NCBI GenBank assembly: GCA_023957315.1
Contig: JAMLHE010000005.1
Coordinates: 169,132 to 233,131, forward strand
Source: Candidatus Kapaibacterium sp.
GTDB taxonomy: Bacteria > Bacteroidota > Ignavibacteria > Kapaibacteriales > UBA2268
Direction: 5' to 3'
DNA length: 64,000 bases
Below are positions 37,802 to 59,732 of this stretch, one piece after another; the first letter of the stretch is position 1; each line of letters starts with the position of its first letter. The notes beneath the pieces are model-generated. The model had not been told where the DNA came from, made no database searches, and saw nothing but the letters and a program-made list of their open reading frames with translations. The translations under genes were made by a program, and so were the position numbers.

Positions 37802-40800
37802 ATGAATTGTCGTAAACATTTTTTCGTAGGATTGAACATTGTCGTCGTGATGCTGTTATCAGGGCTGAATATTTCATTCGGTGATGAAAGCGAAAACGGA
37901 CGAAAATTTTATATGACTTTTTTACCCAACTTCCACAACAACAAGTGGTCACAAGAACAGCAATTGAAGTATGGTGACTCGCTTTATATAATAATCTATG
38001 CGGATACAGAACCCACAAACGGTACGATTACATATTCAGATAATAACAGTATAAAGAACGTTCATTCTTTTACGATTCCAAATCCCGACATACCCCATAT
38101 ATTTTCAATTGCATATAATAAGTTTGAATTGATAGGCTATAATGACGCCGGAAGAGTAAATAATAATTCCGATAATGAAAAAATCAGTAAAAAATCATTT
38201 TACATAGAAACTGACAAAAATGTAATTGTATTAGGACATAATCAGGCATATCTAACGAGCGAATCGTTTAATGTATTGCCGGAAGAATTATTAGCAGAAG
38301 ACTATATTGTAATGGCATATAACTCGAACGGCATATCAGGCCCTCCTCCGGGAGTTTCGAATAGCTTAACTGTAACCCCATCTCAGTTTGCAATTATTGC
38401 AACAGAAGATAATACTGTTGTAGATATTTTTCCGAGTGCACCTACATATGCCAATCGCTTGAACCCACAAAGGATAACATTGGACAGATCTGATGTTTAC
38501 TTAGTCCAAGCATATGGATTTCAACAAGATCGTCATAGTGATTTGACAGGTACCGAAGTTCGTTCCGATAAACCTATTGCTATCGTTGCCGGTCAACAAA
38601 GAGCAAGAGTAGCATTTGATTTGCCTCAGCAGGATGTTTCACGCGATATGCTGATGGAGCAAATGCCACCTATAAAATACTGGAATATGTCATTTCCGGT
38701 AATACCTTTGCCCGATCCTGTGTCGCAATTTGATTCACGTCATTTGAAAGATAAATTACGAGTTCTCGCTGCTTTTGATGGCACAGAACTACTTGTTGGC
38801 GATGTTTTGATAGCTCAATTGGACAAAGGGGAATACTATGAAACTGATATAATTGAGCCATTCATGTTGAATTCAACAGCACCTGTTTTACCTATGATTT
38901 ACCGCAGGTCAGCTCAACTATCAAATATGGGCAACTCAGTAGGAGACCCGCTGATGCAGATTGTACCATCAATTGACCAATTTAGCAATCGTCAGAAATT
39001 TTATTCACTTGAAGTTAAAGAACCCAAATTTTCTATGGGTGGTCCGGTTCAACATCAGAGAGTTTATACAGAGCATTTTGCTGTTATCATAAGTCCTAAT
39101 AATAACTTCGGTAACATTACCTTAAATGGAACAAATGTTAACACGAATTTATTCAAACCTATAATAGAAAGTGATTTTTCATATTCGATACTTTCAGTCA
39201 ATCCCGGAACTAATCTGCTAAATTCAATTGAAAATGTGGGGCTCTTCGTATGCGGTTATGGCTATGCTAATTCGTACGGGTATTTTACAGGAACTTTGCG
39301 TGCTCGAGATGATTGGGAACCACCATTGCTCAAATCATCGTCGGATTGTTTCGAGATTGAAGGAATCGTAACGGACAACGGAGTAAAAGAAATTAGAGTC
39401 CAAGATGGTACGGCATTCAACATATATGTTGAAATTGCTCCTTTTACCGAAGGAGATACTACAGTTTCGTTCAAAGCAAAGATTATTAATCCCTTTTTGG
39501 ATGGACATTTCAAATTGATTGCTTCGGATATGATACTTCAGCAAATCAGAAAAGAAATGAGCATTCCCGGATTCACGATTGCTGTAAATGGAACTCAATA
39601 TACCGGGGAAACTATTGAAGTACAAAAGAGAATTCGCTCAGACATCAAATATTGTATGGATTATACTTTGTATAATTACGGTCAATTCCCCCAAGAAGTT
39701 TATATGAAAGCTTTTGAAAGTGAAAACTTTGTCAGCGATTTCCCGAATTCCGTGAATTTAGAACCCGGCGAAAGTTTTACATTCGAAGTATGCTTCAATA
39801 GCGAAGTTGACGTTATCGAAGTGGAAGATTTAATTTTATATAATGATTGCGTAGAACGAAATTTTGCTACTATGGAATTCGAATCCAAAGAAGACCAATA
39901 CGAACCAATCATACTTGCAACACCCGACCCGTGTAATCAATACGTCTCGCTTAAAATAACTGACGAAGATGATTGGGAATGGGGATTGGAGGAAGTCATC
40001 TTTGAAAATGTTGAGAATGTTGAGATTGAAGTTACCAATCCCGGAGTGTATTCTCGAGAAATTATGGCACGAGTAATTGACCCGTACCAAGATGCTTATT
40101 TTATGCTTTCAGTTAAAGATTCCTCCGGCAAAGTTGCAAGTTACGAAGCAATATTGCCAGGTTTTACTCTCGAATTTGAAGATTTAACACTTTCCGGCTC
40201 ATCAGACCAATATGAAGACTATGAATTCTCCAACACTATGATTGGTGGTTTAAATTGTTCACAATTCAGAATCAAAAACTATGGAGGATTTGACTTAGAT
40301 TTGGACGATGTATTTATGATGAAAAATAGCTTGTTTACAGTGCCCCAAGCTCAAATGCCATTGATAATTAAGCCCGGCACAAGTATGGATTTGACCCTTT
40401 GTTACCGCCCCGGCATATTTGTTGACGAAATTGATTATGACACACTGAAATTGACACATAATTGCATTGACCGTTTTGTGCCCGTTTCGGGATTGGCGTT
40501 AAGTATCGAATTTAATGAAGATTCAAGATGCAACGTTCCATTGTCGATTAGCTCGTCGAGTGTCCCGAATACAACATATTTATCAAGCAGTACACCGAAT
40601 CCTACCCAAGGAATCGCAAAAATCGAGTTTGGACTTCCGCAAGATTCATATGTCGAAATCACAGTTTATTCAATCTTAGGGCAAGAAATTTTGAACCTTG
40701 TAAATAGCGAGCTAAAAGCAGGACATTTTGAAATGGATTTAGATTTGAATAATCAACCATCCGGAATATATATTTATACTTTGCAAACGGATTCTACAAT

Positions 40801-40831
40801 AATCACAAAAACATTGCTAATCAATCGCTAA
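37802..40831 (+). CDS. Large secreted protein of unknown function with T9SS C-terminal sorting domain
   Basis: Signal peptide MNCRKHFFVGLNIVVVMLLSGLNISFG. 1009 aa. C-terminus NPTQGIAKIEFGLPQDSYVEITVYSILGQEI...GIYIYTLQTDSTIITKTLLINR fits the CTD pattern. Confidence 0.7.
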   Translation: MNCRKHFFVGLNIVVVMLLSGLNISFGDESENGRKFYMTFLPNFHNNKWSQEQQLKYGDSLYIIIYADTEPTNGTITYSDNNSIKNVHSFTIPNPDIPHIFSIAYNKFELIGYNDAGRVNNNSDNEKISKKSFYIETDKNVIVLGHNQAYLTSESFNVLPEELLAEDYIVMAYNSNGISGPPPGVSNSLTVTPSQFAIIATEDNTVVDIFPSAPTYANRLNPQRITLDRSDVYLVQAYGFQQDRHSDLTGTEVRSDKPIAIVAGQQRARVAFDLPQQDVSRDMLMEQMPPIKYWNMSFPVIPLPDPVSQFDSRHLKDKLRVLAAFDGTELLVGDVLIAQLDKGEYYETDIIEPFMLNSTAPVLPMIYRRSAQLSNMGNSVGDPLMQIVPSIDQFSNRQKFYSLEVKEPKFSMGGPVQHQRVYTEHFAVIISPNNNFGNITLNGTNVNTNLFKPIIESDFSYSILSVNPGTNLLNSIENVGLFVCGYGYANSYGYFTGTLRARDDWEPPLLKSSSDCFEIEGIVTDNGVKEIRVQDGTAFNIYVEIAPFTEGDTTVSFKAKIINPFLDGHFKLIASDMILQQIRKEMSIPGFTIAVNGTQYTGETIEVQKRIRSDIKYCMDYTLYNYGQFPQEVYMKAFESENFVSDFPNSVNLEPGESFTFEVCFNSEVDVIEVEDLILYNDCVERNFATMEFESKEDQYEPIILATPDPCNQYVSLKITDEDDWEWGLEEVIFENVENVEIEVTNPGVYSREIMARVIDPYQDAYFMLSVKDSSGKVASYEAILPGFTLEFEDLTLSGSSDQYEDYEFSNTMIGGLNCSQFRIKNYGGFDLDLDDVFMMKNSLFTVPQAQMPLIIKPGTSMDLTLCYRPGIFVDEIDYDTLKLTHNCIDRFVPVSGLALSIEFNEDSRCNVPLSISSSSVPNTTYLSSSTPNPTQGIAKIEFGLPQDSYVEITVYSILGQEILNLVNSELKAGHFEMDLDLNNQPSGIYIYTLQTDSTIITKTLLINR

Positions 40832-42849: not shown

Positions 42850-44481
42850 TCACATCTTCACAAACATCTGCGTCCGGCTGCTGATACGTATGTAATACAC
42901 ACCACGAGAGAGATGCGAAATATCAATTCTTAAATTCCCGCTCCCTGAGCCTGTCGAAGGGAGACGGGTGAGGTTCACACATTCACCAAGAGTGTTGTAG
43001 ATTTTAATTTCAGCAGTTTCATCAACCCCACGGTTAACCGTAGGGTTGATAGCAGCATTAATTTCAATATATTCGCTTGCCGGATTGGGGTGGATAAAGG
43101 ATACAGAGTTTGACTCGCTTACGCTTACATTGTTCAAGGTCGTGAAATTCCATGTTGGTGACCAAATCATTTTTTTGTTATGGCGGAGACCGACGCGCCA
43201 AAAATAACTCGTAAGATATTTAAAATCATTTAAAGTCAATTGATTTGATTTAAGATTCCCTTGATAAAAGATATTTTGGAAATTATTATCCTCAGCAATT
43301 TGGAAGTGATATGAATCTAATTGTGACGAAGGTTCCCACTCAAAATTTATTTCATCGCTTTTTTGTTGACTTCCATGGACGGGAGTTGTTAGCCGGATTG
43401 ATGCGGGTATAGGCTGAAATTTAAAAAACATCCCTTCATATTTATATATATTGCCGTACCACGTACCCACTACCGGCTTCTTGCCTGCCCAATCAATGCG
43501 CATGGTTAATGGTGCTTCGTCTATCATCTGCTGTGGTAATGGATGATAGTTCCAAGTATTACCCCCATCATTAGTCATAACAATTTTACCATACTGACCA
43601 ACTGCGACACCATTCAATTCATCATAAAATTTAATTGATTGAAGACCAAATTTTGGCTCAACAATTGTGTCAAGCACAGCGACCCAATTTTTACCTCTGT
43701 CTCGAGTTCGGTAAATTACATCTGACCGATAATGTGCTATACCAAGCAGTTCACTACCAACCAAAAAAGCTATACTGTCATTAACAATATCTAATTCTCT
43801 AAAACCTAAATATGTAGAATCAACTTTAAAATCACATAATCTCACCCAATTTTGAGTTTTAATATTAAAATTTACATACTGTTTAGAAAAATTATCGCCC
43901 GTTTTAGCTAAAACATAAAACCCTAAAGTTTCCTCATTAACTTTATCAATGCAATATATTTCGCTTCGTATAAGCATGGTATCGGCTATTGTATAAGTTT
44001 CCCACCCGTCTTCTGTTATATAAATATAGTGATGAAATGTATCATCAGACCATTGTGTATCTGTAATAATTCCACGCAAAGAATCAAACATAAAAATATT
44101 AATTGGGTTAGAATCTTCTGCAATTAAGATTTTACTAAATGATTTACCACGGTCTGTACTCTTTGTTACATATTTCCCTTCCGAGAAAATTGCGAAATAA
44201 TTGTCTTTATCGGGTGCGGAAAAATCACGTATATTCAGTAAATATTTAGGTTCTTCATTCATTGGGTCCGCTTTATAGGTCAAAGACCAAGTATCACCAG
44301 CATCATAGCTATGATAAAGCTCTATTAGTCCGGTTTGCTGAACCACAGATACGCACATCCCATCAAAGCATACCAAAGGATTAATTTGTCCCGTATCTAA
44401 ATTCTTTGTATATTTCCATTCAGAAGCATATGTAGCTATTCTTGCAATGAATAGTAAGAATATTATAATTAGTAGTTTCAT
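42850..44481 (-). CDS. Secreted BNR-repeat/FN3 protein with T9SS C-terminal sorting domain
   Basis: Signal peptide. Asp-box repeats (STDRGKSF, TRDRGKNW, TNDGGNTW). C-terminus ...FIHPNPASEYIEINA...GVYYIRISSRTQMFVKM. Confidence 0.7.
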   Translation of the reverse strand: MKLLIIIFLLFIARIATYASEWKYTKNLDTGQINPLVCFDGMCVSVVQQTGLIELYHSYDAGDTWSLTYKADPMNEEPKYLLNIRDFSAPDKDNYFAIFSEGKYVTKSTDRGKSFSKILIAEDSNPINIFMFDSLRGIITDTQWSDDTFHHYIYITEDGWETYTIADTMLIRSEIYCIDKVNEETLGFYVLAKTGDNFSKQYVNFNIKTQNWVRLCDFKVDSTYLGFRELDIVNDSIAFLVGSELLGIAHYRSDVIYRTRDRGKNWVAVLDTIVEPKFGLQSIKFYDELNGVAVGQYGKIVMTNDGGNTWNYHPLPQQMIDEAPLTMRIDWAGKKPVVGTWYGNIYKYEGMFFKFQPIPASIRLTTPVHGSQQKSDEINFEWEPSSQLDSYHFQIAEDNNFQNIFYQGNLKSNQLTLNDFKYLTSYFWRVGLRHNKKMIWSPTWNFTTLNNVSVSESNSVSFIHPNPASEYIEINAAINPTVNRGVDETAEIKIYNTLGECVNLTRLPSTGSGSGNLRIDISHLSRGVYYIRISSRTQMFVKM

Positions 44482-44580: not shown

Positions 44581-44718
44581 TCAGATGTGCCACACCTGTG
44601 CCGAGGTTATCTGAACTATCTCTTTCGTCATTCTGAGCGAAGCGAAGAATCCATGCCTTTATGAAATCTTGATTCTTCGCCTGCGGCTTCAGAATGACCA
44701 ACGGTTCGGACAAAACAG
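44581..44718. repeat. Copy A of ~156-bp structured intergenic repeat (MITE/REP-like)
   Basis: tcagatgtgccacacctg...atctgaactatctctttcgtcattctgagcgaagcgaagaatccatgcctttatgaaatcttgattcttcgcctgcggcttcagaatgacc... is near-identical to the copies at 45250 and 45406. Confidence 0.8.
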
Positions 44719-44979
44719 TTACAAATCTTTATAGACTTCATCGCGCTTGGAAATCTTTATAATTTCAATCGTTAGAATTTTATCTTGTATTGTATAAACA
44801 ATGCGGTATGAAGAAACGCGAATCCGATACAGATTTTCTTTGAGAATTAATTTTTTACAACCACGTGGTCTTGGATTTTTGGCTAAAGAAAAGATTTTCT
44901 CGTTAATAGATTCGAGAATATCAAGAGGCAATTTGTCGAGACTTTTGAGGGCTGTTTTCTTAATTAGAATCCGATACAT
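44719..44979 (-). CDS. RelE/ParE-family type II toxin
   Basis: 86 aa with the RelE/ParE pattern ...NPRPRGCKKLILKENLYRIRVSSYRIVYTIQDKILTIEIIKISKRDEVY. Overlaps the upstream antitoxin ORF by 20 nt. Confidence 0.8.
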   Translation of the reverse strand: MYRILIKKTALKSLDKLPLDILESINEKIFSLAKNPRPRGCKKLILKENLYRIRVSSYRIVYTIQDKILTIEIIKISKRDEVYKDL

Positions 44980-45193
44980 CCAATTTCTTCTTTTTCTTTA
45001 TGATGGATTCAATGCTCGATTTATAGTCAACAGATTCCTCATTTTTTAGAAGTTCGTAGGCAATGATATCCTGAATATCCTCGATGTATTCCAAAGTAAT
45101 TTTCTTTGGCGATTTCAGAGGAAGCAACAAATGGGTTTTTGCACCATTCTGGTCGGTTATAAAACTAATATCAGGCATAAGACTCCTTTTCAT
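44960..45193 (-). CDS. Antitoxin of the RelE/ParE module (small acidic protein)
   Basis: 77 aa, immediately upstream of and overlapping the toxin. Ile/Leu-rich N-terminal half and acidic C-terminus are typical of cognate antitoxins. Confidence 0.6.
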   Translation of the reverse strand: MKRSLMPDISFITDQNGAKTHLLLPLKSPKKITLEYIEDIQDIIAYELLKNEESVDYKSSIESIIKKKKKLDVSDSN

Positions 45194-45249: not shown

Positions 45250-45405
45250 TCAGATGTGACACACCTGCCAAGGTGATCTGAACAATCTCTTTCGTCATTC
45301 TGAGCGAAGCGAAGAATCCATGCCTTTATGAAATCTTGATTCTTCGCCTGCGGCTCAGAATGACCGGATGTTCGGACAGAACGCTGTTGCTGTCCTTACA
45401 AAGTA
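45250..45405. repeat. Copy B of ~156-bp structured repeat
   Basis: Three modules: hairpin tcagatgtgacacacctgccaaggtgatctga; long imperfect hairpin gtcattctgagcgaagcgaagaatc/gattcttcgcctgcggctcagaatgac; hairpin ggacagaacgctgttgctgtcc. Confidence 0.8.
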
Positions 45406-45562
45406 TCAGATGTGACACACCTGCCAAGGTGATCTGAACTATCTCTTTCGTCATTCTGAGCGAAGCGAAGAATCCATGCCTTTATGAAATCTTGATTCTT
45501 CGCCTGCGGCTTCAGAATGACCAACGGTTCGGACAGAACGCTGTTGCTATCCCTACAAAATT
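45406..45562. repeat. Copy C of ~156-bp structured repeat (tandem to copy B)
   Basis: Same three-hairpin architecture; period 156 bp relative to copy B. Confidence 0.8.
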
Positions 45563-47505: not shown

Positions 47506-47922
47506 TCAAACAGCAGTGTTTTCAAGTACAGGTTTTTCAAGTACAAAATGAACTTTTTCTTGGATAACTTCTTCAGTGAAAGGCTTGGAAATAAATGCCA
47601 CGGCACCGTTTGCGATAGCAAAGCGAAGGAGGTCTTTGTCAATATTTGCAGAAATAATTATCACAGGAATTGCTTCTGTGATTTCGATTTTCTTGAGTAA
47701 TTTCAACATAGTATCTCCCCTAATTTCAGGAAGAATAAAGTCCAATATGATAACATCAGGCTTATGATTTATCGCCATGACTATTCCGTCATAAGGATTT
47801 AGTGCCGAAAAAACAGTAAAATCCTTTTTTTCCAGAGAATGGGTTATTGATTTATGAACCCAGCTATCATCGTCAATCAGTAAAACCGATTTCGAGCTGT
47901 TTCCTGAAAAATTCTCAAACAT
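47506..47922 (-). CDS. Single-domain response regulator (CheY-like receiver)
   Basis: LLIDDD acidic pocket, phospho-acceptor Asp in IILDFILP, S in IIISAN, K in SKPF; 138 aa. Confidence 0.8.
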   Translation of the reverse strand: MFENFSGNSSKSVLLIDDDSWVHKSITHSLEKKDFTVFSALNPYDGIVMAINHKPDVIILDFILPEIRGDTMLKLLKKIEITEAIPVIIISANIDKDLLRFAIANGAVAFISKPFTEEVIQEKVHFVLEKPVLENTAV

Positions 47923-47931
47923 AACATAATC

Positions 47932-50157
47932 CTACGCCTTATTGAATGGAATTCTAAAAGTAATCAAATTGCCATCTTCAACGCCGAAAGTGTCAACAGT
48001 CAGCTTTGCACCCATTATATTAAAATAAGCATTAATCTTAGATATTTTGAGCAAAATATCTGATTTATCATCTTTGAGTGCTTCAATAGTATTATCCGAA
48101 TTCAATTTGTACATGCCTATCATTTCTGAGACTAATTTGTTCGCACCACCGAGAATTTGGACTTCGACAATTCTCTCATAAGCATTTTCTTGTGCTTGAA
48201 TTATTATTTCGGTTTTATCAATACCTGTAGAAAGTATGTCGAATGCATTATAGGTAGCGATTGTAATTGTTTCGATGTTACCGTAAACTTTGACTTTTTT
48301 GGTATCGTCATCAACAATGAATTTGACATTATGATTGACATCTTTATCCATAGTATAATGACTTTGGGCAGCATTATATATATCAACTAACTTAGCAGTT
48401 TCAAACGCAACTGCAGTTTTATCTTGGACAATTGTTGCGTCAATCATATCCGAAACGAAAGTGAAAATTTCTTCGCTGGATTCTTCCGCCAATTTAACAT
48501 ACGAATCACGTTCATCATCAGTTTCGTATAATTTACCCGTTACCATTTGCAAAAATCCCAAGATACCGGTAAGAGAATTTCGCAATTGGAAACTCATTTT
48601 TCTCATGAAATAGTTCTTCGATTCAATCGCTTCTCGCGCAAAAAGTTCAGCAAGTTTCAATTGCTTTTGTTGGAGCAATGTTTGTTCTTCTGCGAGTTTT
48701 TCGATTGTGACATCACGCCCGATGCAATAAATTAATTTGTCTTTGGGAGAAATAGTGAACGACCAATTGACCCATCTGAATTTTTCAGTCTGTGATTTCA
48801 TTTTCAAATAGGTTCTTTCGGTTATTTCATGGTCAGCTTTTATATTCAATATTTTGTTGAATTCGCGGAGATTTTCATCATCAAAAACATAATCATCGAA
48901 CGATGTTCCGATCACTTCGATTTCATCAACCCCGAAAATATCTTTAGCTGCGGGGTTCATGCTAATCCAATTTCGGTCAAATTTCATGACAGCGATAATA
49001 TCTTTAGAAGTTTCGACAATTCTGCGTTGCGACCTTGTCATACGGTCAGCCAATTCAAGTGCTCGAGAACGCGATGTGACTACAGCATAAACAAATCCAA
49101 AAAAGGCAAAGCTGATAAGTATAGAAATTATCAATGATGCTAAAGGCATATTGGCAGTTAATTGACCGCCAAAAGTAGGTGTTGTGTAGAATCTAATTGT
49201 GATTTCTCTATCGCCAATCATTATTGTTTCATCTTTCTGAAGCATAGGTTTATAATCAGAATCAATCAATGCAGAATTCGTAGATGAATAAATCGTAAAC
49301 AATTCACCGTTTTCGTCTTTATCATAAATTTTGTAAGCAATAGTAGTGTCAATCGGAGTATATGTGGTACCTACTAAAAATTCGTTCAAAAGAGCTGTTT
49401 CAAAAAACTTTTTAGCATTGAGTTCTACTGCAACCACACCGGCAAAATTATTTCTCCTATCGTTCAAATCTTCTCTTTCCGTGCCATATTTATAAATTGG
49501 AGTAATAAGATAAATTCCCAAAGTATCAGGTCGAGTATTGTAAAATCCTGTCGAGGTAGCTTTGTTATTATCACGAGCATATTCAATTGCATTGAACATT
49601 TGCTTTTCAGGAGCTAAATCGAAACCAATTCTGTGGATATTTCGGCTATATGGAATAGAATGATTGATAAGGTAATACAAATCACTTTCGTTATTACTTT
49701 GAATTTCGAAGTCGTAATAGCCTTGCGAGCGGACATAGAAAACGAACTCACTCAAAGAACTTTTCGGGACTTGAGCAATGTATGAAATCCCGGATATTGA
49801 AGTATAAGTTCTTGTGGGTATTGTGGCGTAAAGCTCGAAATAATCGCGAACAACGTCAATAATCAAATCATACAATCCGCTCATTGAAAAGAGCACTTCC
49901 AGATTTCTCAGATTAACGGTTTCAATACGAGATATTACATTAGTAGTCGATTTATTAAACTCACTTTGCAACTCACTTTCAATTTGATTGCTAACAATAT
50001 CCCGAACAAAAAAACTCAGTACCAATAAAATAATTAGTATTAGATAGGCAGGATAAGTTTTCTTTATGGAATGTATTCCGGCTCCCTTATGGGCAACATC
50101 CCTTAAAATCTTATCATATGATACCGTTTGTTTTACATCACTCATTCTATTTTCCAA
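47932..50157 (-). CDS. Membrane sensor with periplasmic domain, PAS domain and degenerate histidine-kinase core (phospho-acceptor His apparently absent)
   Basis: N-terminal TM, ~300-aa extracytoplasmic region, second TM, PAS-like segment, then a HisKA-like helix where the expected SHELRTPL is SFQLRNSL. The C-terminal ATPase-like domain lacks clear N/G1/G2 boxes but ends in a G-x-G...TFRIPF-like pattern. Confidence 0.55.
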   Translation of the reverse strand: MENRMSDVKQTVSYDKILRDVAHKGAGIHSIKKTYPAYLILIILLVLSFFVRDIVSNQIESELQSEFNKSTTNVISRIETVNLRNLEVLFSMSGLYDLIIDVVRDYFELYATIPTRTYTSISGISYIAQVPKSSLSEFVFYVRSQGYYDFEIQSNNESDLYYLINHSIPYSRNIHRIGFDLAPEKQMFNAIEYARDNNKATSTGFYNTRPDTLGIYLITPIYKYGTEREDLNDRRNNFAGVVAVELNAKKFFETALLNEFLVGTTYTPIDTTIAYKIYDKDENGELFTIYSSTNSALIDSDYKPMLQKDETIMIGDREITIRFYTTPTFGGQLTANMPLASLIISILISFAFFGFVYAVVTSRSRALELADRMTRSQRRIVETSKDIIAVMKFDRNWISMNPAAKDIFGVDEIEVIGTSFDDYVFDDENLREFNKILNIKADHEITERTYLKMKSQTEKFRWVNWSFTISPKDKLIYCIGRDVTIEKLAEEQTLLQQKQLKLAELFAREAIESKNYFMRKMSFQLRNSLTGILGFLQMVTGKLYETDDERDSYVKLAEESSEEIFTFVSDMIDATIVQDKTAVAFETAKLVDIYNAAQSHYTMDKDVNHNVKFIVDDDTKKVKVYGNIETITIATYNAFDILSTGIDKTEIIIQAQENAYERIVEVQILGGANKLVSEMIGMYKLNSDNTIEALKDDKSDILLKISKINAYFNIMGAKLTVDTFGVEDGNLITFRIPFNKA

Positions 50158-50163
50158 TTTAAA

Positions 50164-50535
50164 TTACGAATTAAAAACTCTTCTGATTTCAGCTACAAAA
50201 GTATTAACATCTACCGGTTTAGTCATATAATGTTTAAAACCATAATTAAGAAATTTTTCCTTGTCATCATAATCAGAATACCCTGTAACTGCAATCGCAG
50301 GTACATCCTTATTAAGAGCCGATTGTCTCACAATATTTAAAACTTCATTACCCGAAATATCAGGTAAAAGTATATCAGTTATTATGCCAAAACATTCGTT
50401 AGCCTTTAACCATTCAACTGCAGTTTGCCCATTTGGAAAATCAACAACTTCGTACCCTGCTTTTCTTAATAATGTAGAGAACAACATTCGGATTGGGTTG
50501 TTATCTTCAATAACACATATTTTTGATTTCGACAT
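50164..50535 (-). CDS. Single-domain response regulator (CheY-like receiver)
   Basis: VIEDN, phospho-acceptor Asp in IITDILLPD, T in AVTGY, K in TKPVD; 123 aa. Confidence 0.8.
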   Translation of the reverse strand: MSKSKICVIEDNNPIRMLFSTLLRKAGYEVVDFPNGQTAVEWLKANECFGIITDILLPDISGNEVLNIVRQSALNKDVPAIAVTGYSDYDDKEKFLNYGFKHYMTKPVDVNTFVAEIRRVFNS

Positions 50536-50571: not shown

Positions 50572-51942
50572 CTATTTTGAACTAATCACAATTTCTATTC
50601 TTCTGTTTTGTCGTCTTCCTGCTTCAGTGTTGTTCGGAGCAACCGGACTAAGCGAACCACTGAAAGTGGAAAGTACTTTACCCCCGGGCACTCCTCTTGC
50701 TATCAAATACTGTCGGGCATTGTTGGCTCTTGCCCGTGAACGTTCCGTATTTTCAGATAATGTACCTTGGTTGTCCGAATGCCCTACAATTCTAACTTCT
50801 GCATTTGGATTTGCTAACAAATAATTAGCGACGGCATCTAAATATTCTTTAACATCTTTTGACAATCCGGTTGAAGCTGATGTAGGGAATCTGAATTGGT
50901 TAGCCTGTCCCACAGCCACATTTATCATTGGTGTTTCAGGTACGGTTACTTTGGGTCGCTCAGTTTCTTTTAACTCGGAAGGTCGTAACTCGCCTAACAA
51001 CACCGGATTTTGGACTAAATCAATCGTCGCTGATGGCAAAGCTTCTGCGGGAATATATCTGGCAAATTCAATACCCCGCGAATCTTGAACAGATGCGAAA
51101 TAAACAGGTGGTGGCTCAAAAAGTGGGTCATATTTCAAAGTATCATAAAGGATTTTGTCTTTGCCAAGTTTAATTGCAAGTCCTGCTTTGGCGTAAAACA
51201 CATTCCATTTGCTTTCATTATCGCCTATAGATGAACTTGCAAGATGTAATGTAACAAATGGAGTCATCATCATGCGTCCCCAATTGATTATATCGGCTGA
51301 AAAAATATCATACCCGATTCCGATGTGGAGACCGAGTCCGGCTTTAAAATTGTTAATTGCAACGGTTTGGTCTTGGGAAATATCGCCCGTGTTTATGAAT
51401 TTTTTCCTTTGTTTGAAATCATCACCAATCATCAAATCAATATCAAGTCCGATTAAGCCATGCAATCCCGGAAGCGGAAAATTATAACGACCGTAAAGAT
51501 TGAAATTTACGAACGAATTTGCACCTACGACTTCATATTTTGTATCTAAAGAATCTTCCAATGGTCTGGTTTCGGATGTAAATGTTCGTTTGTCTATAAA
51601 GTTGATGCCGGCGCCGGCGCCCCATGTTTCATTTACGGGAATCCATTCGGCAGTTAGCCCAATAAAATAGCCCAATCCGGAGCCTGATGAGTAATTCAAA
51701 ATTGAGTTGAATGGGTTTTCTATTTCACCCGGGAATTGAAACAGATTCAGTTCGCCAAAATACAATAAAGCACTTGGTCCGCCACGAGCACCGAACCACC
51801 AATCACCATAGCTTCTGTTTAAGGCAATTGTATCTCGGTTTTTGTCTATATGCATGGTCTTGAATTCACCCTTCGGTGCTTGACCCGAGGCATCAGTATT
51901 TAATAAAACTATGAGTATAAGTATAATTAAAGTGCTTTTCAT
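50572..51942 (-). CDS. Outer-membrane protein with N-terminal beta-barrel-like region and C-terminal OmpA/MotB peptidoglycan-binding domain
   Basis: Signal peptide. C-terminal OmpA-like region RIVGHSDNQGTLSENTERSRARANNARQYLIARGV...NRRIEIVI. Confidence 0.75.
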   Translation of the reverse strand: MKSTLIILILIVLLNTDASGQAPKGEFKTMHIDKNRDTIALNRSYGDWWFGARGGPSALLYFGELNLFQFPGEIENPFNSILNYSSGSGLGYFIGLTAEWIPVNETWGAGAGINFIDKRTFTSETRPLEDSLDTKYEVVGANSFVNFNLYGRYNFPLPGLHGLIGLDIDLMIGDDFKQRKKFINTGDISQDQTVAINNFKAGLGLHIGIGYDIFSADIINWGRMMMTPFVTLHLASSSIGDNESKWNVFYAKAGLAIKLGKDKILYDTLKYDPLFEPPPVYFASVQDSRGIEFARYIPAEALPSATIDLVQNPVLLGELRPSELKETERPKVTVPETPMINVAVGQANQFRFPTSASTGLSKDVKEYLDAVANYLLANPNAEVRIVGHSDNQGTLSENTERSRARANNARQYLIARGVPGGKVLSTFSGSLSPVAPNNTEAGRRQNRRIEIVISSK

Positions 51943-51948
51943 ATTTTA

Positions 51949-53856
51949 TTATTTGCTCACCTGAAACTTGTAATTCATTTCTTTTTGATTCCATTTGACA
52001 ATTACAAAATAAGTCCCATTTTCAATATTGGTCAAATCAATATCATATTCATAAGAACCGTAATTCAAATCGCCATTATAAATCATTTGCCTCTTGACAC
52101 CGTTCAAATCAGCTAAAATTATTTCATACTTTGCTGTTTCCAACAAATCGAGAGCTAATTTTGCAAATTCCTTTGTAGGGTTGGGATAAAGTAAAATTCC
52201 GTTTCTTTCGTTGCCCACATAAACTCGTCTTACGTATTCTCCTTCGCAATCATAGACAATTACAATCAATCCGTTGATATAACGAATTGAAGGAATTTCT
52301 AATCCAATAATCTCAAAATCTAAAATCCTGACCGAGTCTCGGTCTATATACGAATATATCGCAAGGGAATTAAAATCAAAAATTTGTTCATCGCCGAGAG
52401 CAAAATTGCCTTGGAAAGTGATTGTATCGTAAATTTGCCCGGGTAATGAAGTGATGCCTATTTCGGGTTCCATTATCAAAATCGGGATTTCCAAAGTTAA
52501 GTTGAAATCGAAATCAGACTTTCCTGATTGTTCGAGAGCTTTAGAAATATTGCTGAATATAGGCAATTCAAAATTCGAACCTGCTGAGACAATTTTGTCA
52601 GGTACTTGAATGTATAAATCATTTTCCAATTCGTAATTTTCCGATGTCTCGAGTATAAATACTTCGTCATTGCTCCATACTTTGAACGAATTATCGCGTC
52701 CTGCAGAAGCAATTGTATCTAAGTTAGGCGTGATATCAAGGCTCAAAACGCCGCCACCGTGATTTAGTGCGATTTGGGTCAGTTCAGACATATTCCGAAC
52801 ATCATATTGCCTGATATAGCTATCTAATGAACCTGAAATCGCTCTGCTACCGTCAACTGACATTCTAACTGCTCGGATGTGTTGAGCGTGGGAATTAAAC
52901 GAAGCCAAATGATTGCCTTGTTCATAATCCCAAAGCCGAACAGTTCGGTCAACCCCACAAGTAACTATACTCGAATAGCTACTGTCGGTGTCTGCAGACC
53001 ATACGACCGTATTAGCAGTAACATTACCATGAGCACCTTTCTTTTCGATTGTGCTCGACTCAATATCAACTATATGCGTATAGCCTTCGTAATCGGTAAA
53101 TAATAATTTTGAGCCATCGAAGCCGAATTTGACCGAATAAATTATAGACGAAGTGCCGGTTTCATAAGTTTCGACTAATTCACCATTCGGGTAAAAAGTA
53201 TAAACTTTGCCATTTTCTGTGCCAACAGCTATTAAAGCATTGAAATCCGAATAGCTGACATTTCTAAAAGTAGTGCCATAATCTCGAGCATAGACCTCCT
53301 CACGAATGTCATTCAGCAAATCATAAAGTATCAACACACTATCTGTGACTGCTACGAAACCATCCGATAGGAAGAAAACTGCTTGTTTCAATACACCGGG
53401 CTCAATTAAAAATTCATCAATCATCGCGCGGCTCGGAATGTCCCAAATTTTTACTTTGTTGTCTTTTCCGGTGGTAATCAATCTATTACCATCGTCGGAA
53501 AAGGCGATTGAGCCTACTTCGGTCACATGTGCATCAGGCTGATGCCATATAAGGAAAGGCATTTCGAGCTCGTAACTTTTGACAATCAGCTCCAATTCAT
53601 CGGTATTTAAATATGGTACTAACCATTGGTAAGGCGGAGCAACAATATTTGAAGCTATTAGGTATTGATTCCCTGCGTATGAATAAAAAATATCCACAGG
53701 GTTAGGCTGGTCCATATTCCAAACGATATTTACAGTTTCACCGGAAAGGAGTTTTGTGCCGGCAATTGGCTCAACGATTGTAATTTCATTCTGAGCTTGG
53801 ACTGTCAAAATGAAAAGAAAAAACAAACTACAACATATCGTTGATTTAATTAGCAT
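51949..53856 (-). CDS. Secreted WD40-repeat beta-propeller protein with T9SS C-terminal sorting domain
   Basis: WD40 blades (...VKIWD, ...VRLWD, ...FKVWS). Signal peptide. C-terminus YPNPTKEFAKLALDL...YFVIVKWNQKEMNYKFQVSK is CTD-like. Confidence 0.7.
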   Translation of the reverse strand: MLIKSTICCSLFFLFILTVQAQNEITIVEPIAGTKLLSGETVNIVWNMDQPNPVDIFYSYAGNQYLIASNIVAPPYQWLVPYLNTDELELIVKSYELEMPFLIWHQPDAHVTEVGSIAFSDDGNRLITTGKDNKVKIWDIPSRAMIDEFLIEPGVLKQAVFFLSDGFVAVTDSVLILYDLLNDIREEVYARDYGTTFRNVSYSDFNALIAVGTENGKVYTFYPNGELVETYETGTSSIIYSVKFGFDGSKLLFTDYEGYTHIVDIESSTIEKKGAHGNVTANTVVWSADTDSSYSSIVTCGVDRTVRLWDYEQGNHLASFNSHAQHIRAVRMSVDGSRAISGSLDSYIRQYDVRNMSELTQIALNHGGGVLSLDITPNLDTIASAGRDNSFKVWSNDEVFILETSENYELENDLYIQVPDKIVSAGSNFELPIFSNISKALEQSGKSDFDFNLTLEIPILIMEPEIGITSLPGQIYDTITFQGNFALGDEQIFDFNSLAIYSYIDRDSVRILDFEIIGLEIPSIRYINGLIVIVYDCEGEYVRRVYVGNERNGILLYPNPTKEFAKLALDLLETAKYEIILADLNGVKRQMIYNGDLNYGSYEYDIDLTNIENGTYFVIVKWNQKEMNYKFQVSK

Positions 53857-53871
53857 ATATTTAGGTACAAA

Positions 53872-55185
53872 TTATCTTACGCCATCTTTGACGAGTTGGA
53901 CTTTGACTACCGCTCGGGATATTTCAATAGTAGGGTCATTGATGGGGTAAGCAAGCAAAACTATATTGTAAAGCCCTTGTGAAGCGAGTTCAGGGGCTGA
54001 AAAAATTGTATAATGTTCGCCCATTGGCATCAGTAATTTATCAAATTTCTCGCCTGTTTCAGGATGAGTTAGAAATTTGACTTGTTTACCCAACAAATCG
54101 CTTACAAAAGCTGTCAGATAAACGTCATCGTCAAGTTTGTAATTAATCTTGGTCGTAATATTGAATGGGTTTGGTGTTGCATTTGCCTGCACAATCACAG
54201 CATGAGGAACAGGCACATCACGAATAGCAAGCAATGAGTCGAATTCGTAGCCGTCGTCGTCAATCAAGCGCCCCCACAAAGCATAAGAATAATCGCCACC
54301 TCGGTATTGGACCTGGTCGTCGAATTCGCCATAAATGAAGCCCGATGGTGAAATACCTTGGCTCAGAAAGTCAGCAATGTAATGGTCGTAATCTACAAAG
54401 GTGCCGATAGTGTCTGTATATGCGACTTGTTCATCTGTAAATTTGTAACCTCTCAGTACTGTATAACCAACTGCGTTAATTTCCCGCCTTGTTGACCACC
54501 CATACTGCAAATTTGTTTGTCCGACGTAGCGTACCCAGAAATCTTCGAATTCAAATCCCCAGGGTCGCCTGTCATCATAACCAATAGTAAAAGTGTTGTT
54601 TCTGCCATCGTGAATTTCGACATTATCGTCAGCATAATACCAAGTGACATTCCTTTCAATCGAATCCGTCTCGATTTTATATGCTACTGCTTGGTAATAA
54701 TATTGGGGCTGCAGCCAATCAATACGATTCGGAATAGGGTCTCCCCCATTTTTGATAAGTCTGAACTGACCTAAGAGTAGCGATGTATCAAGAGGTACTT
54801 CCATGCAATCAATATAATTTTCGGGTCCCAGAATTGTAATACTAAACCGTTCGTCATATTTTTGATACTCGATTAAATACTCTTTTTTGGGCAATCCGGC
54901 ACCCGAAATTACAGTTTCCGGCAGGTCGGTCTCATAAAGCTGAATTTCAAAATCATTCGAATCAATTGTTATTCCTTGCGGAAAAGTAAATTGAAATGTT
55001 CCGTTTACAAATTTCAGCCATTTGTCCGAATTTCTCTGAATCCGAAGTTGGAACTCAAGTGTATGAGAATTAACTAAATAGGTATTATTCACATTAACAA
55101 AAGCAAGCGTATCCAAAGCATAAATATTAGTTACGCAACTGATAAAGACAAACAAAGCAATTATGAATATTTTTGCAATTTTCAT
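53872..55185 (-). CDS. Secreted protein of unknown function with T9SS-like C-terminal domain
   Basis: Signal peptide MKIAKIFIIALFVFISCVTNIYA. C-terminus TPNPFNITTKINYKL...LYNIVLLAY...KVQLVK. Confidence 0.6.
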   Translation of the reverse strand: MKIAKIFIIALFVFISCVTNIYALDTLAFVNVNNTYLVNSHTLEFQLRIQRNSDKWLKFVNGTFQFTFPQGITIDSNDFEIQLYETDLPETVISGAGLPKKEYLIEYQKYDERFSITILGPENYIDCMEVPLDTSLLLGQFRLIKNGGDPIPNRIDWLQPQYYYQAVAYKIETDSIERNVTWYYADDNVEIHDGRNNTFTIGYDDRRPWGFEFEDFWVRYVGQTNLQYGWSTRREINAVGYTVLRGYKFTDEQVAYTDTIGTFVDYDHYIADFLSQGISPSGFIYGEFDDQVQYRGGDYSYALWGRLIDDDGYEFDSLLAIRDVPVPHAVIVQANATPNPFNITTKINYKLDDDVYLTAFVSDLLGKQVKFLTHPETGEKFDKLLMPMGEHYTIFSAPELASQGLYNIVLLAYPINDPTIEISRAVVKVQLVKDGVR

Positions 55186-55216
55186 ACAAGACTTTTTCCC
55201 GTTAGCTTGGATTTCA

Positions 55217-57322
55217 TCATTGTCTTCTATTATTCCAGCTTATATTAAAGTCACGTGTATTGATTAGACCGTCCATGTTGTAGTCTGCGTTGAAAAAGCC
55301 GTATTTTGTAAAACCAATCCACGAACCTTCGTGGTCGTAGTTCATCGTATAATTTTGAGTAACATTGAAAATGCCACCCATTACAGCAACATCTTCGTTC
55401 AAGAAGCCGCCTTTGAGCGCAAAAATCCTTTGCCCTAAGTCGTTGATTTCGACAATTTTCATAGATGCTTCCGAGCCTTCAATCAAACCGGGTTGACTAA
55501 AATCGTACAAAAAGCTGTTATTTTGCGGAAATATAGCTAATGGTTCGGCAGTGATTATCGGAGAGTGATTTCTGTGACGAATTACAAGGTGGTAATTTCC
55601 GCCACCGGAATCAATTCCATCTTGACGAGTAATTCTTATGTTCGAATCTCCATGAATGTCAAACAATCTGCCATCCGGATGCAAATATACAGTCTTATAG
55701 AAGCTTGCTTGTTCATTCCTTTTTTTCCTAAATTCAAGCACAACAAAATCAACTGCCGAATCAGGGATTTGAGTTATCAAAGTTGGGTCGAATTTTGTAT
55801 CGAGATTAATCGGATAAGCATCATAATTTGTCTGTGCGAGCAATCCCCTATTATTCAGTTCAGTATGCATTCTGCCCTGATTTCCTTTCAGATAAGGACC
55901 TTCGAGGTACATTCGAGCATTAAGAATAATTGAAATCATACCGGGCAAACCAATTGCAAATTCGCCAAATTGCGATATTGATTGGACATCGCTAAATGCC
56001 CAATTTGTAGCAAAATCAATCGTAGGTTCATTCGAATCGAAGTCAAACCAATTATTACCAATCCAAAGTTGCAACAGCAATTCCGGTACAGGCAAATTAC
56101 CCGTTTCGTGGAATTGTGCATTCTGCAAATGTCTCCAGCCGAACCCAAAACTGGCTGCCATTCCTTGGTCAATCGGATTGTTTGATTCGTCGAATCCTTG
56201 CAAATTGATTATTCTCTGTACTTTTTCATCGCCACCGGGATAAGGTTGATAAGTCAAGGGTCTGACTGTACTTACTATACGCGTAATTGCTGCCATATCA
56301 GCTTGATTAGCAAATAGCAACCAAGTATGGGGATTGTTGAGCAAGATTGTGTCACCAAACACTAAGTTAGTTCGTTCAAAATTGCCTGCAATTTCAGCAG
56401 CATCATTATACCCTGCGTAAACAGGATTTATATCCGCTGTAAAAGTAAGAGTATCTTCAAGCGTATTGACAGTGGCTCCGACAAATAGTGAATCGTTCAC
56501 GGTCACATTTCTGGAAAGTTCAGTATTGCCTGTATTTTGGACGTACAAATCTTTTAGAACCGACTTATCAGACGGCGTTTCAGGACCGGTGACCAAATCA
56601 CCTGTGCCGATATAGCGAATGTTGACTGATGCTTCGAATTGAGGCTCTACGGCGAGTGATGCTCCGACATTTCGGACAATCAGCGTAGTATCCTGCATAG
56701 TGAAGTTGTTTTCCTGTGAATTCCGAAGCTCTCCTCTGTTTAGTTTGAGTTCTTCATCAATCAGAAAACCACCGCTTACAACGTTGACACCATGGGGATT
56801 ATCTATCATTAATTTCGAAAATGAACCAACACCCATCAAATCTTGGGATTCATTTTCGGCATTAAGGACGATATATCGTGGACCTGAATATTTAGCATTA
56901 TTCTTAACAGTAGATTTCGCGTGAACGTCTTCGGGCTCATAACCTATCCAACGAGTAGTGAAATGTGCACTATCAACAACAATCAACGAATCAAGAACTA
57001 CCAATGGCTTGATAACATTATTGGCATCTCTCAAATCATGAACGATTTTTTTTGCTTGGTTTGCGATTACTAATTGGAAGTAAACAATATTCGGGATAAC
57101 TTGCTGCGAAGATTCTACCTTTTGCAAAAATTCTACTCTACCACCAAGCGTATCAGGCAAACTCTTCACCTGACCATTTTTAACTCTAATGGTACCTGAG
57201 TTTTTGATAGCACCTCCTGTATTATCAATTGCGTTTTGGGCGTTAGCTCCCAAGCCTGCAATTAATAGTAAGATGATGGTGATGGTGATATTTATTATAT
57301 TTTTTTTCATTCTTTCTTTCAT
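55217..57322 (-). CDS. Large secreted protein of unknown function
   Basis: Signal peptide. 701 aa. N-terminus carries an NTGGAIKNSGTIRVKNG motif related to the C-termini of the two upstream giant ORFs. Confidence 0.6.
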   Translation of the reverse strand: MKERMKKNIINITITIILLLIAGLGANAQNAIDNTGGAIKNSGTIRVKNGQVKSLPDTLGGRVEFLQKVESSQQVIPNIVYFQLVIANQAKKIVHDLRDANNVIKPLVVLDSLIVVDSAHFTTRWIGYEPEDVHAKSTVKNNAKYSGPRYIVLNAENESQDLMGVGSFSKLMIDNPHGVNVVSGGFLIDEELKLNRGELRNSQENNFTMQDTTLIVRNVGASLAVEPQFEASVNIRYIGTGDLVTGPETPSDKSVLKDLYVQNTGNTELSRNVTVNDSLFVGATVNTLEDTLTFTADINPVYAGYNDAAEIAGNFERTNLVFGDTILLNNPHTWLLFANQADMAAITRIVSTVRPLTYQPYPGGDEKVQRIINLQGFDESNNPIDQGMAASFGFGWRHLQNAQFHETGNLPVPELLLQLWIGNNWFDFDSNEPTIDFATNWAFSDVQSISQFGEFAIGLPGMISIILNARMYLEGPYLKGNQGRMHTELNNRGLLAQTNYDAYPINLDTKFDPTLITQIPDSAVDFVVLEFRKKRNEQASFYKTVYLHPDGRLFDIHGDSNIRITRQDGIDSGGGNYHLVIRHRNHSPIITAEPLAIFPQNNSFLYDFSQPGLIEGSEASMKIVEINDLGQRIFALKGGFLNEDVAVMGGIFNVTQNYTMNYDHEGSWIGFTKYGFFNADYNMDGLINTRDFNISWNNRRQ

Positions 57323-57372
57323 AACACCCCCTAACCCCCTCTTAAAAGAGGGGGAAATGGGAGTAATTAAAA

Positions 57373-59544: not shown

Positions 59545-59732
59545 ATAAACTCCAATAAAAATAAGAAAAAAAGTAGATTTCAATATAAAAAATAATTCTC
59601 GTAGTAATTCAAATTTAACTATTTCAACAAATACCAAATTAAGTACAATTACTTAATTAACATATAATATACATTATAATTTACAATTATAACTATAAAA
59701 CACAATATATTTCTAATAAATCTTATGCCAAA

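Follow-up and report, generated by a model that had tools for sequence, protein, structure and literature searches.

The window analysed here, a 64-kb stretch of a Candidatus Kapaibacterium sp. contig, contains at 47506-50535 three co-directional minus-strand open reading frames (ORFs), which encode a receiver (RRu, for upstream), a membrane sensor resembling a histidine kinase (HK), and a second receiver (RRd, for downstream). The sensor lacks both the phospho-acceptor histidine and the ATP-binding motifs of a kinase, and its gene is under purifying selection. Taken together, the evidence makes it rather probable that the protein is a functional pseudo-histidine-kinase, with a regulated phosphatase or docking activity toward RRu. 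Coordinates without a locus name are window positions, at which all three ORFs are present as originally described.

The transmitter part of the sensor begins with a HisKA match at residues 514-573, scoring 28.4 bits against a Pfam cutoff of 26.9. In HMMER alignments with solved kinases, including 7z8n, KinB, and HK853, its motif MSFQLRNSL superposes on MSHEIRTPL, placing Phe523 at the position of the phospho-histidine. The DHp domain (residues 491-585) contains no other histidine, those of the sensor being residues 23, 29, 166, 175, 443, 600, and 609. The original prediction, made from the letters of the window, had read the H-box as SFQLRNSL, without His, and this reading withstood the alignments, as did the check for a His elsewhere in the dimerization helix. 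The H-box of the window sensor thus offers no phosphorylatable His, as a competent kinase would. In addition, the following residue (H+1) is Gln524, whereas an acidic residue at this position is needed for the autokinase activity of HisKA kinases (PMC3510030). The DHp retains R526, N527, S528, L529, and T530, and was modeled by AlphaFold2 as two long helices.

The C-terminal domain has kept less of its sequence signature. HATPase_c (PF02518) was not matched in the window sensor, and the approximately 155 C-terminal residues have no Pfam match. When aligned by HHalign, the sensor matched a bona fide kinase end to end over 221 columns. The N-box NLIGNAIKF faced YNAFD-ILS, a gap standing at the Mg-binding Asn; G1 (DTGIG) faced LGG--, and G2 (GTGLGL) faced DKSDILL. 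The absence of N, G1, and G2 boxes that the original prediction had noted was thereby borne out, as profile alignment recovered none of them. A profile built from 38 family members likewise aligned with real kinases not only over the DHp but also in the CA domain, and HATPase_c was matched in only two of these 38, below threshold. At the site of the flexible ATP lid of kinases, the model shows two confident, family-conserved helices (model residues 185-207), and four acidic residues at the ATP-lid/G2 site are invariant in the family (E172, E176, D208, and D211 in the numbering of the 38-sequence alignment A1). The overall fold of a transmitter, a DHp hairpin followed by a Bergerat-fold CA domain, is present. 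From the alignments and the model, the CA-like domain is predicted to be a CA domain that retains this fold without the ATP site. The sensor would thereby combine a DHp with a CA-like domain unable to bind ATP, as HK-like phosphotransferases do.

Related loci were gathered with a 9-sequence full-length alignment, from which 80 species-representative loci were kept and 35 were left out. At least 120 full-length orthologues were found at 35-95% identity, the named ones belonging to Kapabacteria or Ignavibacteria. An exhaustive profile search returned 61 representatives at E <= 1e-30, followed by a sharp drop in score to generic kinases, and full-length representatives share one architecture of about 720-760 aa. 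None of the at least 120 full-length relatives carries a precomputed HATPase_c match. The H-box column is His in 117 of 121 aligned sequences and in 146 of 165 clusters (about 88%), while H+1 is Gln in 99 of the 121, with no acidic residue among the six commonest. Conservation of the His-less state among orthologues, which the original prediction had proposed to look for, is seen in the window's clade (L005-L008) and not across the family. The ATP-less state is ancestral and family-wide, and the His-less state derived, recent, and recurrent. The family has no name of its own in Pfam or NCBIfam beyond generic domain labels, and a literature search on it found no paper, returning only plant cytokinin papers. 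It is undescribed, while working pseudokinases as a kind are already known in principle. Record titles assign some contigs that carry the gene cluster of Kapabacteria/Ignavibacteria type (L007, L024, and many loci titled "uncultured Hyphomicrobiales") to Desulfobulbaceae, Chloroflexota, Hyphomicrobiales, or Chloroherpeton; these labels are probably binning or labelling errors in public metagenome-assembled genomes.

His-less states were tallied over the 80 species-representative loci. Phe occupies the His position in the window's clade, in a tandem paralogue beside a His copy (L001), in L056, whose sister L061 has Tyr, and in L072; Leu is found in L060 and L069, and Glu in L081. In a basal clade of six species, the H-box has decayed fully. 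These states take at least six separate positions in a neighbor-joining tree, each with His-bearing sisters. Among the clusters, 19 of 165 are His-less, 10 of them with Phe, and one clade displays a series of single codon steps, from CAT (His, L041) through TAT (Tyr, L061) to TTT (Phe, L056). Asn or Thr at H+4 is retained in 12 of the 13 clusters that carry Phe, Met, Gln, or Leu in place of His. At least six separate losses of the histidine are evident, with Phe as the most frequent replacement. A Tyr535-to-Phe change was considered as a general companion of His loss and rejected, as it is seen in the window's clade, in the paralogue of L001, and in L081, and is missing from L056, L061, L060, L069, and L072.

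Two further cases show variations on this theme. At L001:2796-7199, two family sensors lie in tandem behind a single RRu, the first with FSHQLRNSLT and the second with MSFRLRNSLT; this pair evidently arose by duplication, followed by loss of His in one copy. The family member P0136 reads KLSQHLRNSL in place of KLSHQLRNSL, with the His shifted by one position (HQ to QH).

A reading of the gene as a relic of recent inactivation, or as an artefact of sequencing, with a Phe that means nothing functionally, is hardly credible. The nearest orthologues that keep His (63-66% identity) and a HisKA score only just over the cutoff could be cited for it, the closest of these orthologues being L003, with 64% identity and a CAT codon in the identical syntenic slot. 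Against it, the same TTC codon is found in four other, independent assemblies from different samples (L005-L008), a change from His to Phe takes two nucleotide changes, the sensor ORF has no frameshifts or stops, and Phe has replaced His in further lineages as well. Against L005 (95% identical), the sensor of the window shows a synonymous divergence (dS) of 0.66 and a dN/dS ratio (omega) of 0.04; taken by domain, omega is 0.09 in the DHp and 0.04 in the CA-like domain. The sensor omega against L008 is 0.06. Low omega at considerable divergence (0.04-0.06 at dS 0.5-0.66) thus extends across all domains, including the DHp. In pairs of His-less sequences generally, the DHp omega is 0.06-0.14, indicating purifying selection in each, and that of RRd is 0.12 between the window and L005. 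Because of the dN/dS values and the agreement of multiple assemblies, the relic or artefact reading is effectively refuted, and the description of the sensor as a pseudokinase stands: double-dead, with neither the His nor the ATP boxes, and not decaying. In the same comparison with L005, dS is uneven among the adjacent genes (RRu 0.16, sensor 0.66, RRd 0.89), which may reflect recombination or gene conversion over RRu.

The two receivers differ in their standing. Both are intact, as had been described: RRu has the pocket residues E10, D11, D54, T84, and K106, and RRd, read from its translation, D17-D19, D61, S89, and K111. In each, PF00072 covers nearly the whole protein and there is no output domain, as in CheY-like single-domain receivers. 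The idea of a receiver-sensor-receiver module held only in part of its arrangement, since the upstream receiver alone is conserved and RRd is confined to the small clade of the window. RRu is present in 58 of the 64 species loci with enough upstream sequence; all counts of upstream genes are limited to loci where such sequence suffices. Its acidic pair (E/D-D), D54, T84, and K106 are kept in 76 of 76 orthologues, including those of every His-less lineage that retains RRu.

Mutual information was calculated between sensor and RRu columns over 68 species pairs. Of the 100 top pairs, 17 joined the DHp to alpha1 of RRu (residues 12-25), compared to 1.3 expected, while columns of the CHASE, PAS, and CA-like domains covaried with RRu at expectation. 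Shuffling the species pairing left 0-3 such pairs. The covarying DHp columns are H+5, +8, +9, and +15 and positions in alpha2, which are the classical specificity positions. As alpha1 of RRu covaries with the DHp, canonical docking of RRu appears to persist. In the clade in which the H-box and alpha2 have decayed, no receiver was found within 6 kb, and the PAS and CA-like motifs persist. This joint decay of H-box and alpha2 with loss of RRu mirrors the co-loss of DivL and DivK (PMC4211667).

RRd is present in L003/L009 (the same contig) and in L005-L007, and hence also in the His-bearing sister of the clade. In L008, whose Phe-bearing sensor is 93% identical, only a 22-aa C-terminal relic remains (L008:8246-8311), between the sensor and an aconitase gene. 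The loss in L008 is apparently a recent deletion, and RRd seems to be dispensable. RRd shares 25-29% identity with the REC domain of REC-HK hybrids and 21% with RRu; its derivation by truncation from the receiver of such a hybrid was considered, and the 25-29% was judged too low to claim orthology.

Under the explanation we favor, the periplasmic CHASE domain and the cytoplasmic PAS domain would drive a transmitter that can neither bind ATP nor be phosphorylated, and that would still offer RRu a canonical receiver-docking DHp. The ancestral family may have consisted of ATP-independent, signal-gated phosphotransferases and/or phosphatases acting on RRu~P, comparable to PhyT, ChpT, or RedE, as the Gln at H+1 and the lack of an ATP site suggest that the family His could receive phosphate only in trans or from a receiver. 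In the window's clade, the change from His to Phe would have removed phosphotransfer and left docking. The sensor could then dephosphorylate RRu (and, in this clade, RRd) independently of His, aided by Asn527 at H+4, or it could bind and sequester the phosphorylated receiver in the manner of DivL. Thr or Asn at H+4 is the residue required for the phosphatase activity of HisKA proteins (PMC3510030), the catalytic His only enhances this reaction (PMC7005713), and DivL, with its native Tyr or as Y550F, still binds DivK~P (PMC4211667). The phosphoryl groups of RRu would come from an unlinked kinase or from acetyl phosphate, as no kinase is encoded in the window, and RRd would be a dispensable second client. 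The earlier suggestion that the sensor binds or sequesters its receivers, or signals by some other non-canonical route, seems reasonable on this account, because the sensor is under selection and, judging by the covariation, still docks its receiver.

Several observations weigh against this explanation. DivL has Thr at H+4 yet shows no phosphatase activity (PMC4211667), so that retention of N527 is no proof of catalysis. Nucleotide stimulates the phosphatase activities of HK853 and EnvZ (PMC7005713), and the window sensor is predicted to be unable to bind it. The presence of His in about 88% of the family clearly means that a His-dependent function matters in most lineages, and its loss may be a real change of function. 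The DHp omega of the His-less pairs (0.06-0.14) is somewhat above that of one His-bearing pair (0.03), although the comparisons are few. The p-values of the covariation analysis overstate its significance, since columns recur in several pairs and the sequences have common ancestry. Finally, a His-bearing paralogue elsewhere in the genome, forming heterodimers with the Phe copy, is possible, as the tandem pair of L001 illustrates.

This last point can be extended into an explanation of its own, in which the Phe subunit is active only when paired in a heterodimer with a His-bearing paralogue, the pair still carrying out phosphotransfer with the Phe copy in a regulatory role. We consider this improbable for the window. 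It is suggested by the second Phe lineage (P0105), a tandem duplicate directly after a His copy (FSHQLRNSLT) with a single RRu, while the sensors of the window and of L005-L008 are single copies in the exact ancestral syntenic slot, the slot in which their sister L003 has His. Because they share this single slot, the Phe copy is a replacement of the orthologue rather than an added paralogue. No second copy was found in the window, nor for the genomes of L007 and L008 among the 80 kept loci (35 loci were not kept). Phosphotransfer through a non-canonical acceptor, either H600 or H609 in the CA-like domain or an acidic residue, is less probable still. The invariant acidic residues of the ATP-lid/G2 site could be taken to favor it, but no stretch of the family alignment is less conserved than the one that holds H600 and H609. 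We know of no precedent for such an acceptor site in HisKA transmitters.

More serious, though in our view rather unlikely, is that the sensor modulates a kinase encoded elsewhere in the manner of RetS or ChrS, its DHp forming heterodimers with that kinase or otherwise inhibiting or activating it, with RRu as the substrate of the kinase rather than the client of the sensor. In one clade (L034, L041, L043, L049, L052, L056, L061, L064, and L068), a REC-HisKA-HATPase_c hybrid lies directly 3' of the sensor, at a distance of 46-106 nt, including beside the Phe variant of L056 and the Tyr variant of L061. The hybrid, exemplified by L056:8176-9282, has 369 aa, a canonical PHEFRT H-box, and intact G1 and G2 boxes, making it a candidate phosphate source or partner for the putatively ATP-less sensor. 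Downstream of the sensor in L004, at about 340 nt (296 nt by a longer ORF call), lies the gene of a TPR-HisKA-HATPase kinase. Furthermore, GacS was the best sequence match in the Protein Data Bank (PDB), where RetS was also recovered, and heterodimers of a ChrS pseudokinase with HrrS are documented (PMC9491836). In contrast, neither a kinase nor any receiver besides RRu and RRd turned up in Pfam scans of 32 of the 35 window ORFs of at least 150 aa (the remaining three overlap longer opposite-strand genes), and the window's clade has no kinase within 6 kb of the sensor. A single-sequence phmmer search of the window ORFs with a bona fide kinase missed even the sensor itself and was judged too insensitive. 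The strong covariation between the DHp and alpha1 of RRu also shows that the DHp is constrained above all by receiver docking. Modulation of a kinase is compatible with the phosphatase or docking activity that we favor, and could plausibly run alongside it.

The closest functional precedent for a phosphatase or docking role is the DivL/DivK pair of Caulobacter crescentus (PMC4211667; PDB 4q20), in which DivK is a single-domain receiver. As in DivL, the His of the window sensor is replaced by a non-phosphorylatable residue (F523) and the docking surface is retained, as seen in R526, N527, T530, and the covariation. Unlike the window sensor, DivL still has N, G1, F, and G2 boxes and a weak affinity for nucleotide. 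DivL is a cytoplasmic alphaproteobacterial protein with multiple PAS domains, whereas the window sensor is a membrane receptor with a CHASE domain from the Kapabacteria/Ignavibacteria; the Tyr is fixed across DivL orthologues, whereas the family described here has a majority of His with recurrent loss. The two are not orthologous, as their similarity is of the generic HK level (7.8e-9 by profile) and both architecture and taxon differ.

In architecture, the family resembles the ATP-independent HK-like phosphotransferases PhyT (PMC5898713), ChpT (PMC3433190; PDB 4fpp), Spo0B, and RedE of the Myxococcus RedCDEF system (PMC2755868), although the window sensor lacks the shuttling His that is conserved in these proteins. 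It belongs neither with them nor with DivL. PhyT relays phosphate from SdrG~P through its His to PhyR, and additionally acts by sequestration (PMC5898713). PsmA of Streptomyces (PMC12963549), an evolved ChrS variant with a frameshift in the CA domain (PMC9491836), and RetS (PDB 6dk8) are likewise HK-like proteins that lack some catalytic element and act by protein contacts instead of autophosphorylation. They differ in architecture and in their partners, which are the DivIVA polarisome, HrrS (as a heterodimer), and GacS (as a heterodimer), respectively. To our knowledge, none of the three has been documented to combine both defects with an extracytoplasmic CHASE domain and a co-evolving cognate receiver.

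Only a handful of bacterial histidine pseudokinases are known (DivL, PsmA, and RetS-like proteins), and their origin and later role have mostly been inferred from single examples. The family described here provides paired natural comparisons, in which His-bearing and His-less orthologues occupy the same syntenic slot beside the same cognate receiver, as well as independent losses in several lineages, what looks like a Tyr intermediate, and a clade in which docking site and receiver decayed together. It thereby makes testable whether HisKA phosphatase activity and docking need the phospho-His, and what selection favors after its loss. The pattern at the level of the family, recurrent loss of His with a retained and co-evolving receiver, is of more interest than the individual gene, which would remain a well-supported conserved double-dead transmitter even if the phosphatase or docking model were wrong. 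The analysis also links a conserved gene cluster for large, uncharacterised envelope-associated proteins of Kapabacteria and Ignavibacteria to a signalling module. A broader proposal, which we put forward tentatively, is that an ATP-independent, CHASE-gated phosphotransferase has been converted repeatedly, at least six times and along the His-Tyr-Phe codon path, into a DivL-like reader or eraser of the phosphorylation of its co-evolving receiver. If so, "reversed" signalling of the DivL type would be a recurrent and readily attained outcome of evolution rather than a one-off event. It would here be connected both with a periplasmic ligand-binding domain and with the conserved, wholly uncharacterised envelope cluster p1416-p754-p701-p437-WD40/T9SS-OmpA, and Phe would be the preferred replacement because selection favors a residue that keeps docking of the phosphorylated receiver and abolishes back-transfer. 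The features of the locus are listed below, where T9SS denotes the type IX secretion system.

Table 1. Coordinates of the pseudokinase locus and its conserved upstream genes in the 64-kb window.
Feature	Position	Strand	Description	Evidence
RRu	50164-50535	-	123 aa, single-domain CheY-like receiver, conserved cognate partner of the sensor	PF00072, 1.2e-21
Sensor pseudokinase	47932-50157	-	CHASE-transmembrane-PAS-DHp-CA-like; 741 aa with the TTG start or 737 aa with a start at the ATG of 50145	
Transmembrane segment 1 of sensor	50002-50055	-	About aa 35-52	Within Kyte-Doolittle segment 31-59
Periplasmic CHASE domain of sensor	49306-49848	-	aa 104-284	PF03924, 1.5e-24; between both hydrophobic segments
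Transmembrane segment 2 of sensor	49078-49146	-	About aa 338-360	Within Kyte-Doolittle segment 333-364
Cytoplasmic PAS domain of sensor	48700-49026	-	aa 378-486	PF00989, 3.6e-06; TIGR00229, 1.9e-10
DHp (HisKA-type) helical hairpin of sensor	48403-48687	-	aa 491-585, His-free	PF00512, 28.4 bits
Phe523 codon (TTC) at phospho-His position	48589-48591	-		HMMER alignments to solved kinases
CA-like domain of sensor	47935-48402	-	aa 586-741; predicted Bergerat fold, N/G1/G2 boxes absent, two conserved helices in place of the ATP-lid region	
RRd	47506-47922	-	138 aa, single-domain receiver, accessory of the window's clade	PF00072, 2.8e-21
Conserved upstream cluster, co-directional	50572-57322	-	Four genes, OmpA-like to p701	
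OmpA-like	50572-51942	-		
WD40 with T9SS tail	51949-53856	-		
p437	53872-55185	-		
p701	55217-57322	-		

The membrane sensor of 741 aa that the original prediction placed between the receivers is present, with the CHASE domain framed by two hydrophobic segments, as in CHASE-domain transmembrane receptors. Of the spacers given for the module, the 9 nt between sensor and RRd were confirmed, whereas the 6 nt between RRu and sensor hold only with the TTG start. Starts of orthologues match the ATG four codons 3' of this TTG, which gives a spacer of 18 nt, probably the correct length. Scans for sigma-70 promoters and intrinsic terminators found sites at or below the level of shuffled sequence, the promoter consensus being that of sigma-70 while the organism probably uses Bacteroidota-type promoters; the terminator scan found no minus-strand terminator inside the module.

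The gene order p701-p437-(WD40/T9SS)-OmpA-RRu-sensor is conserved in most of the 80 species loci, with OmpA present in 57 of 64, p437 in 46 of 52, and p701 in 45 of 52. In the window, these genes form part of a long co-directional run on the minus strand (50572-63983) ahead of RRu and the sensor, which encodes proteins of 1416, 754, 701, and 437 aa, the WD40/T9SS protein, and the OmpA-like protein. The four large proteins of 1416, 754, 701, and 437 aa had no Pfam or NCBIfam match even at permissive thresholds. The run may represent an uncharacterised envelope system that is served by the signalling module.

Elsewhere in the window, a ParE toxin gene (44719-44979; PF05016, 5.7e-11) is overlapped by a gene for a candidate antitoxin of 77 aa (44960-45193), and the pair is flanked by three direct repeats of approximately 125 nt (44592-44716, 45259-45383, and 45415-45539) that are 79-95% identical. 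No such pair was called 3' of the aconitase genes of L003 or L005, by gene calls rather than by comparison of the DNA, and the pair may have arrived as a small insertion. Four window proteins (33617-36235, 37802-40831, 42850-44481, and 51949-53856) end in T9SS C-terminal sorting domains (Por_Secre_tail), as would fit an FCB-group organism relying heavily on type IX secretion.

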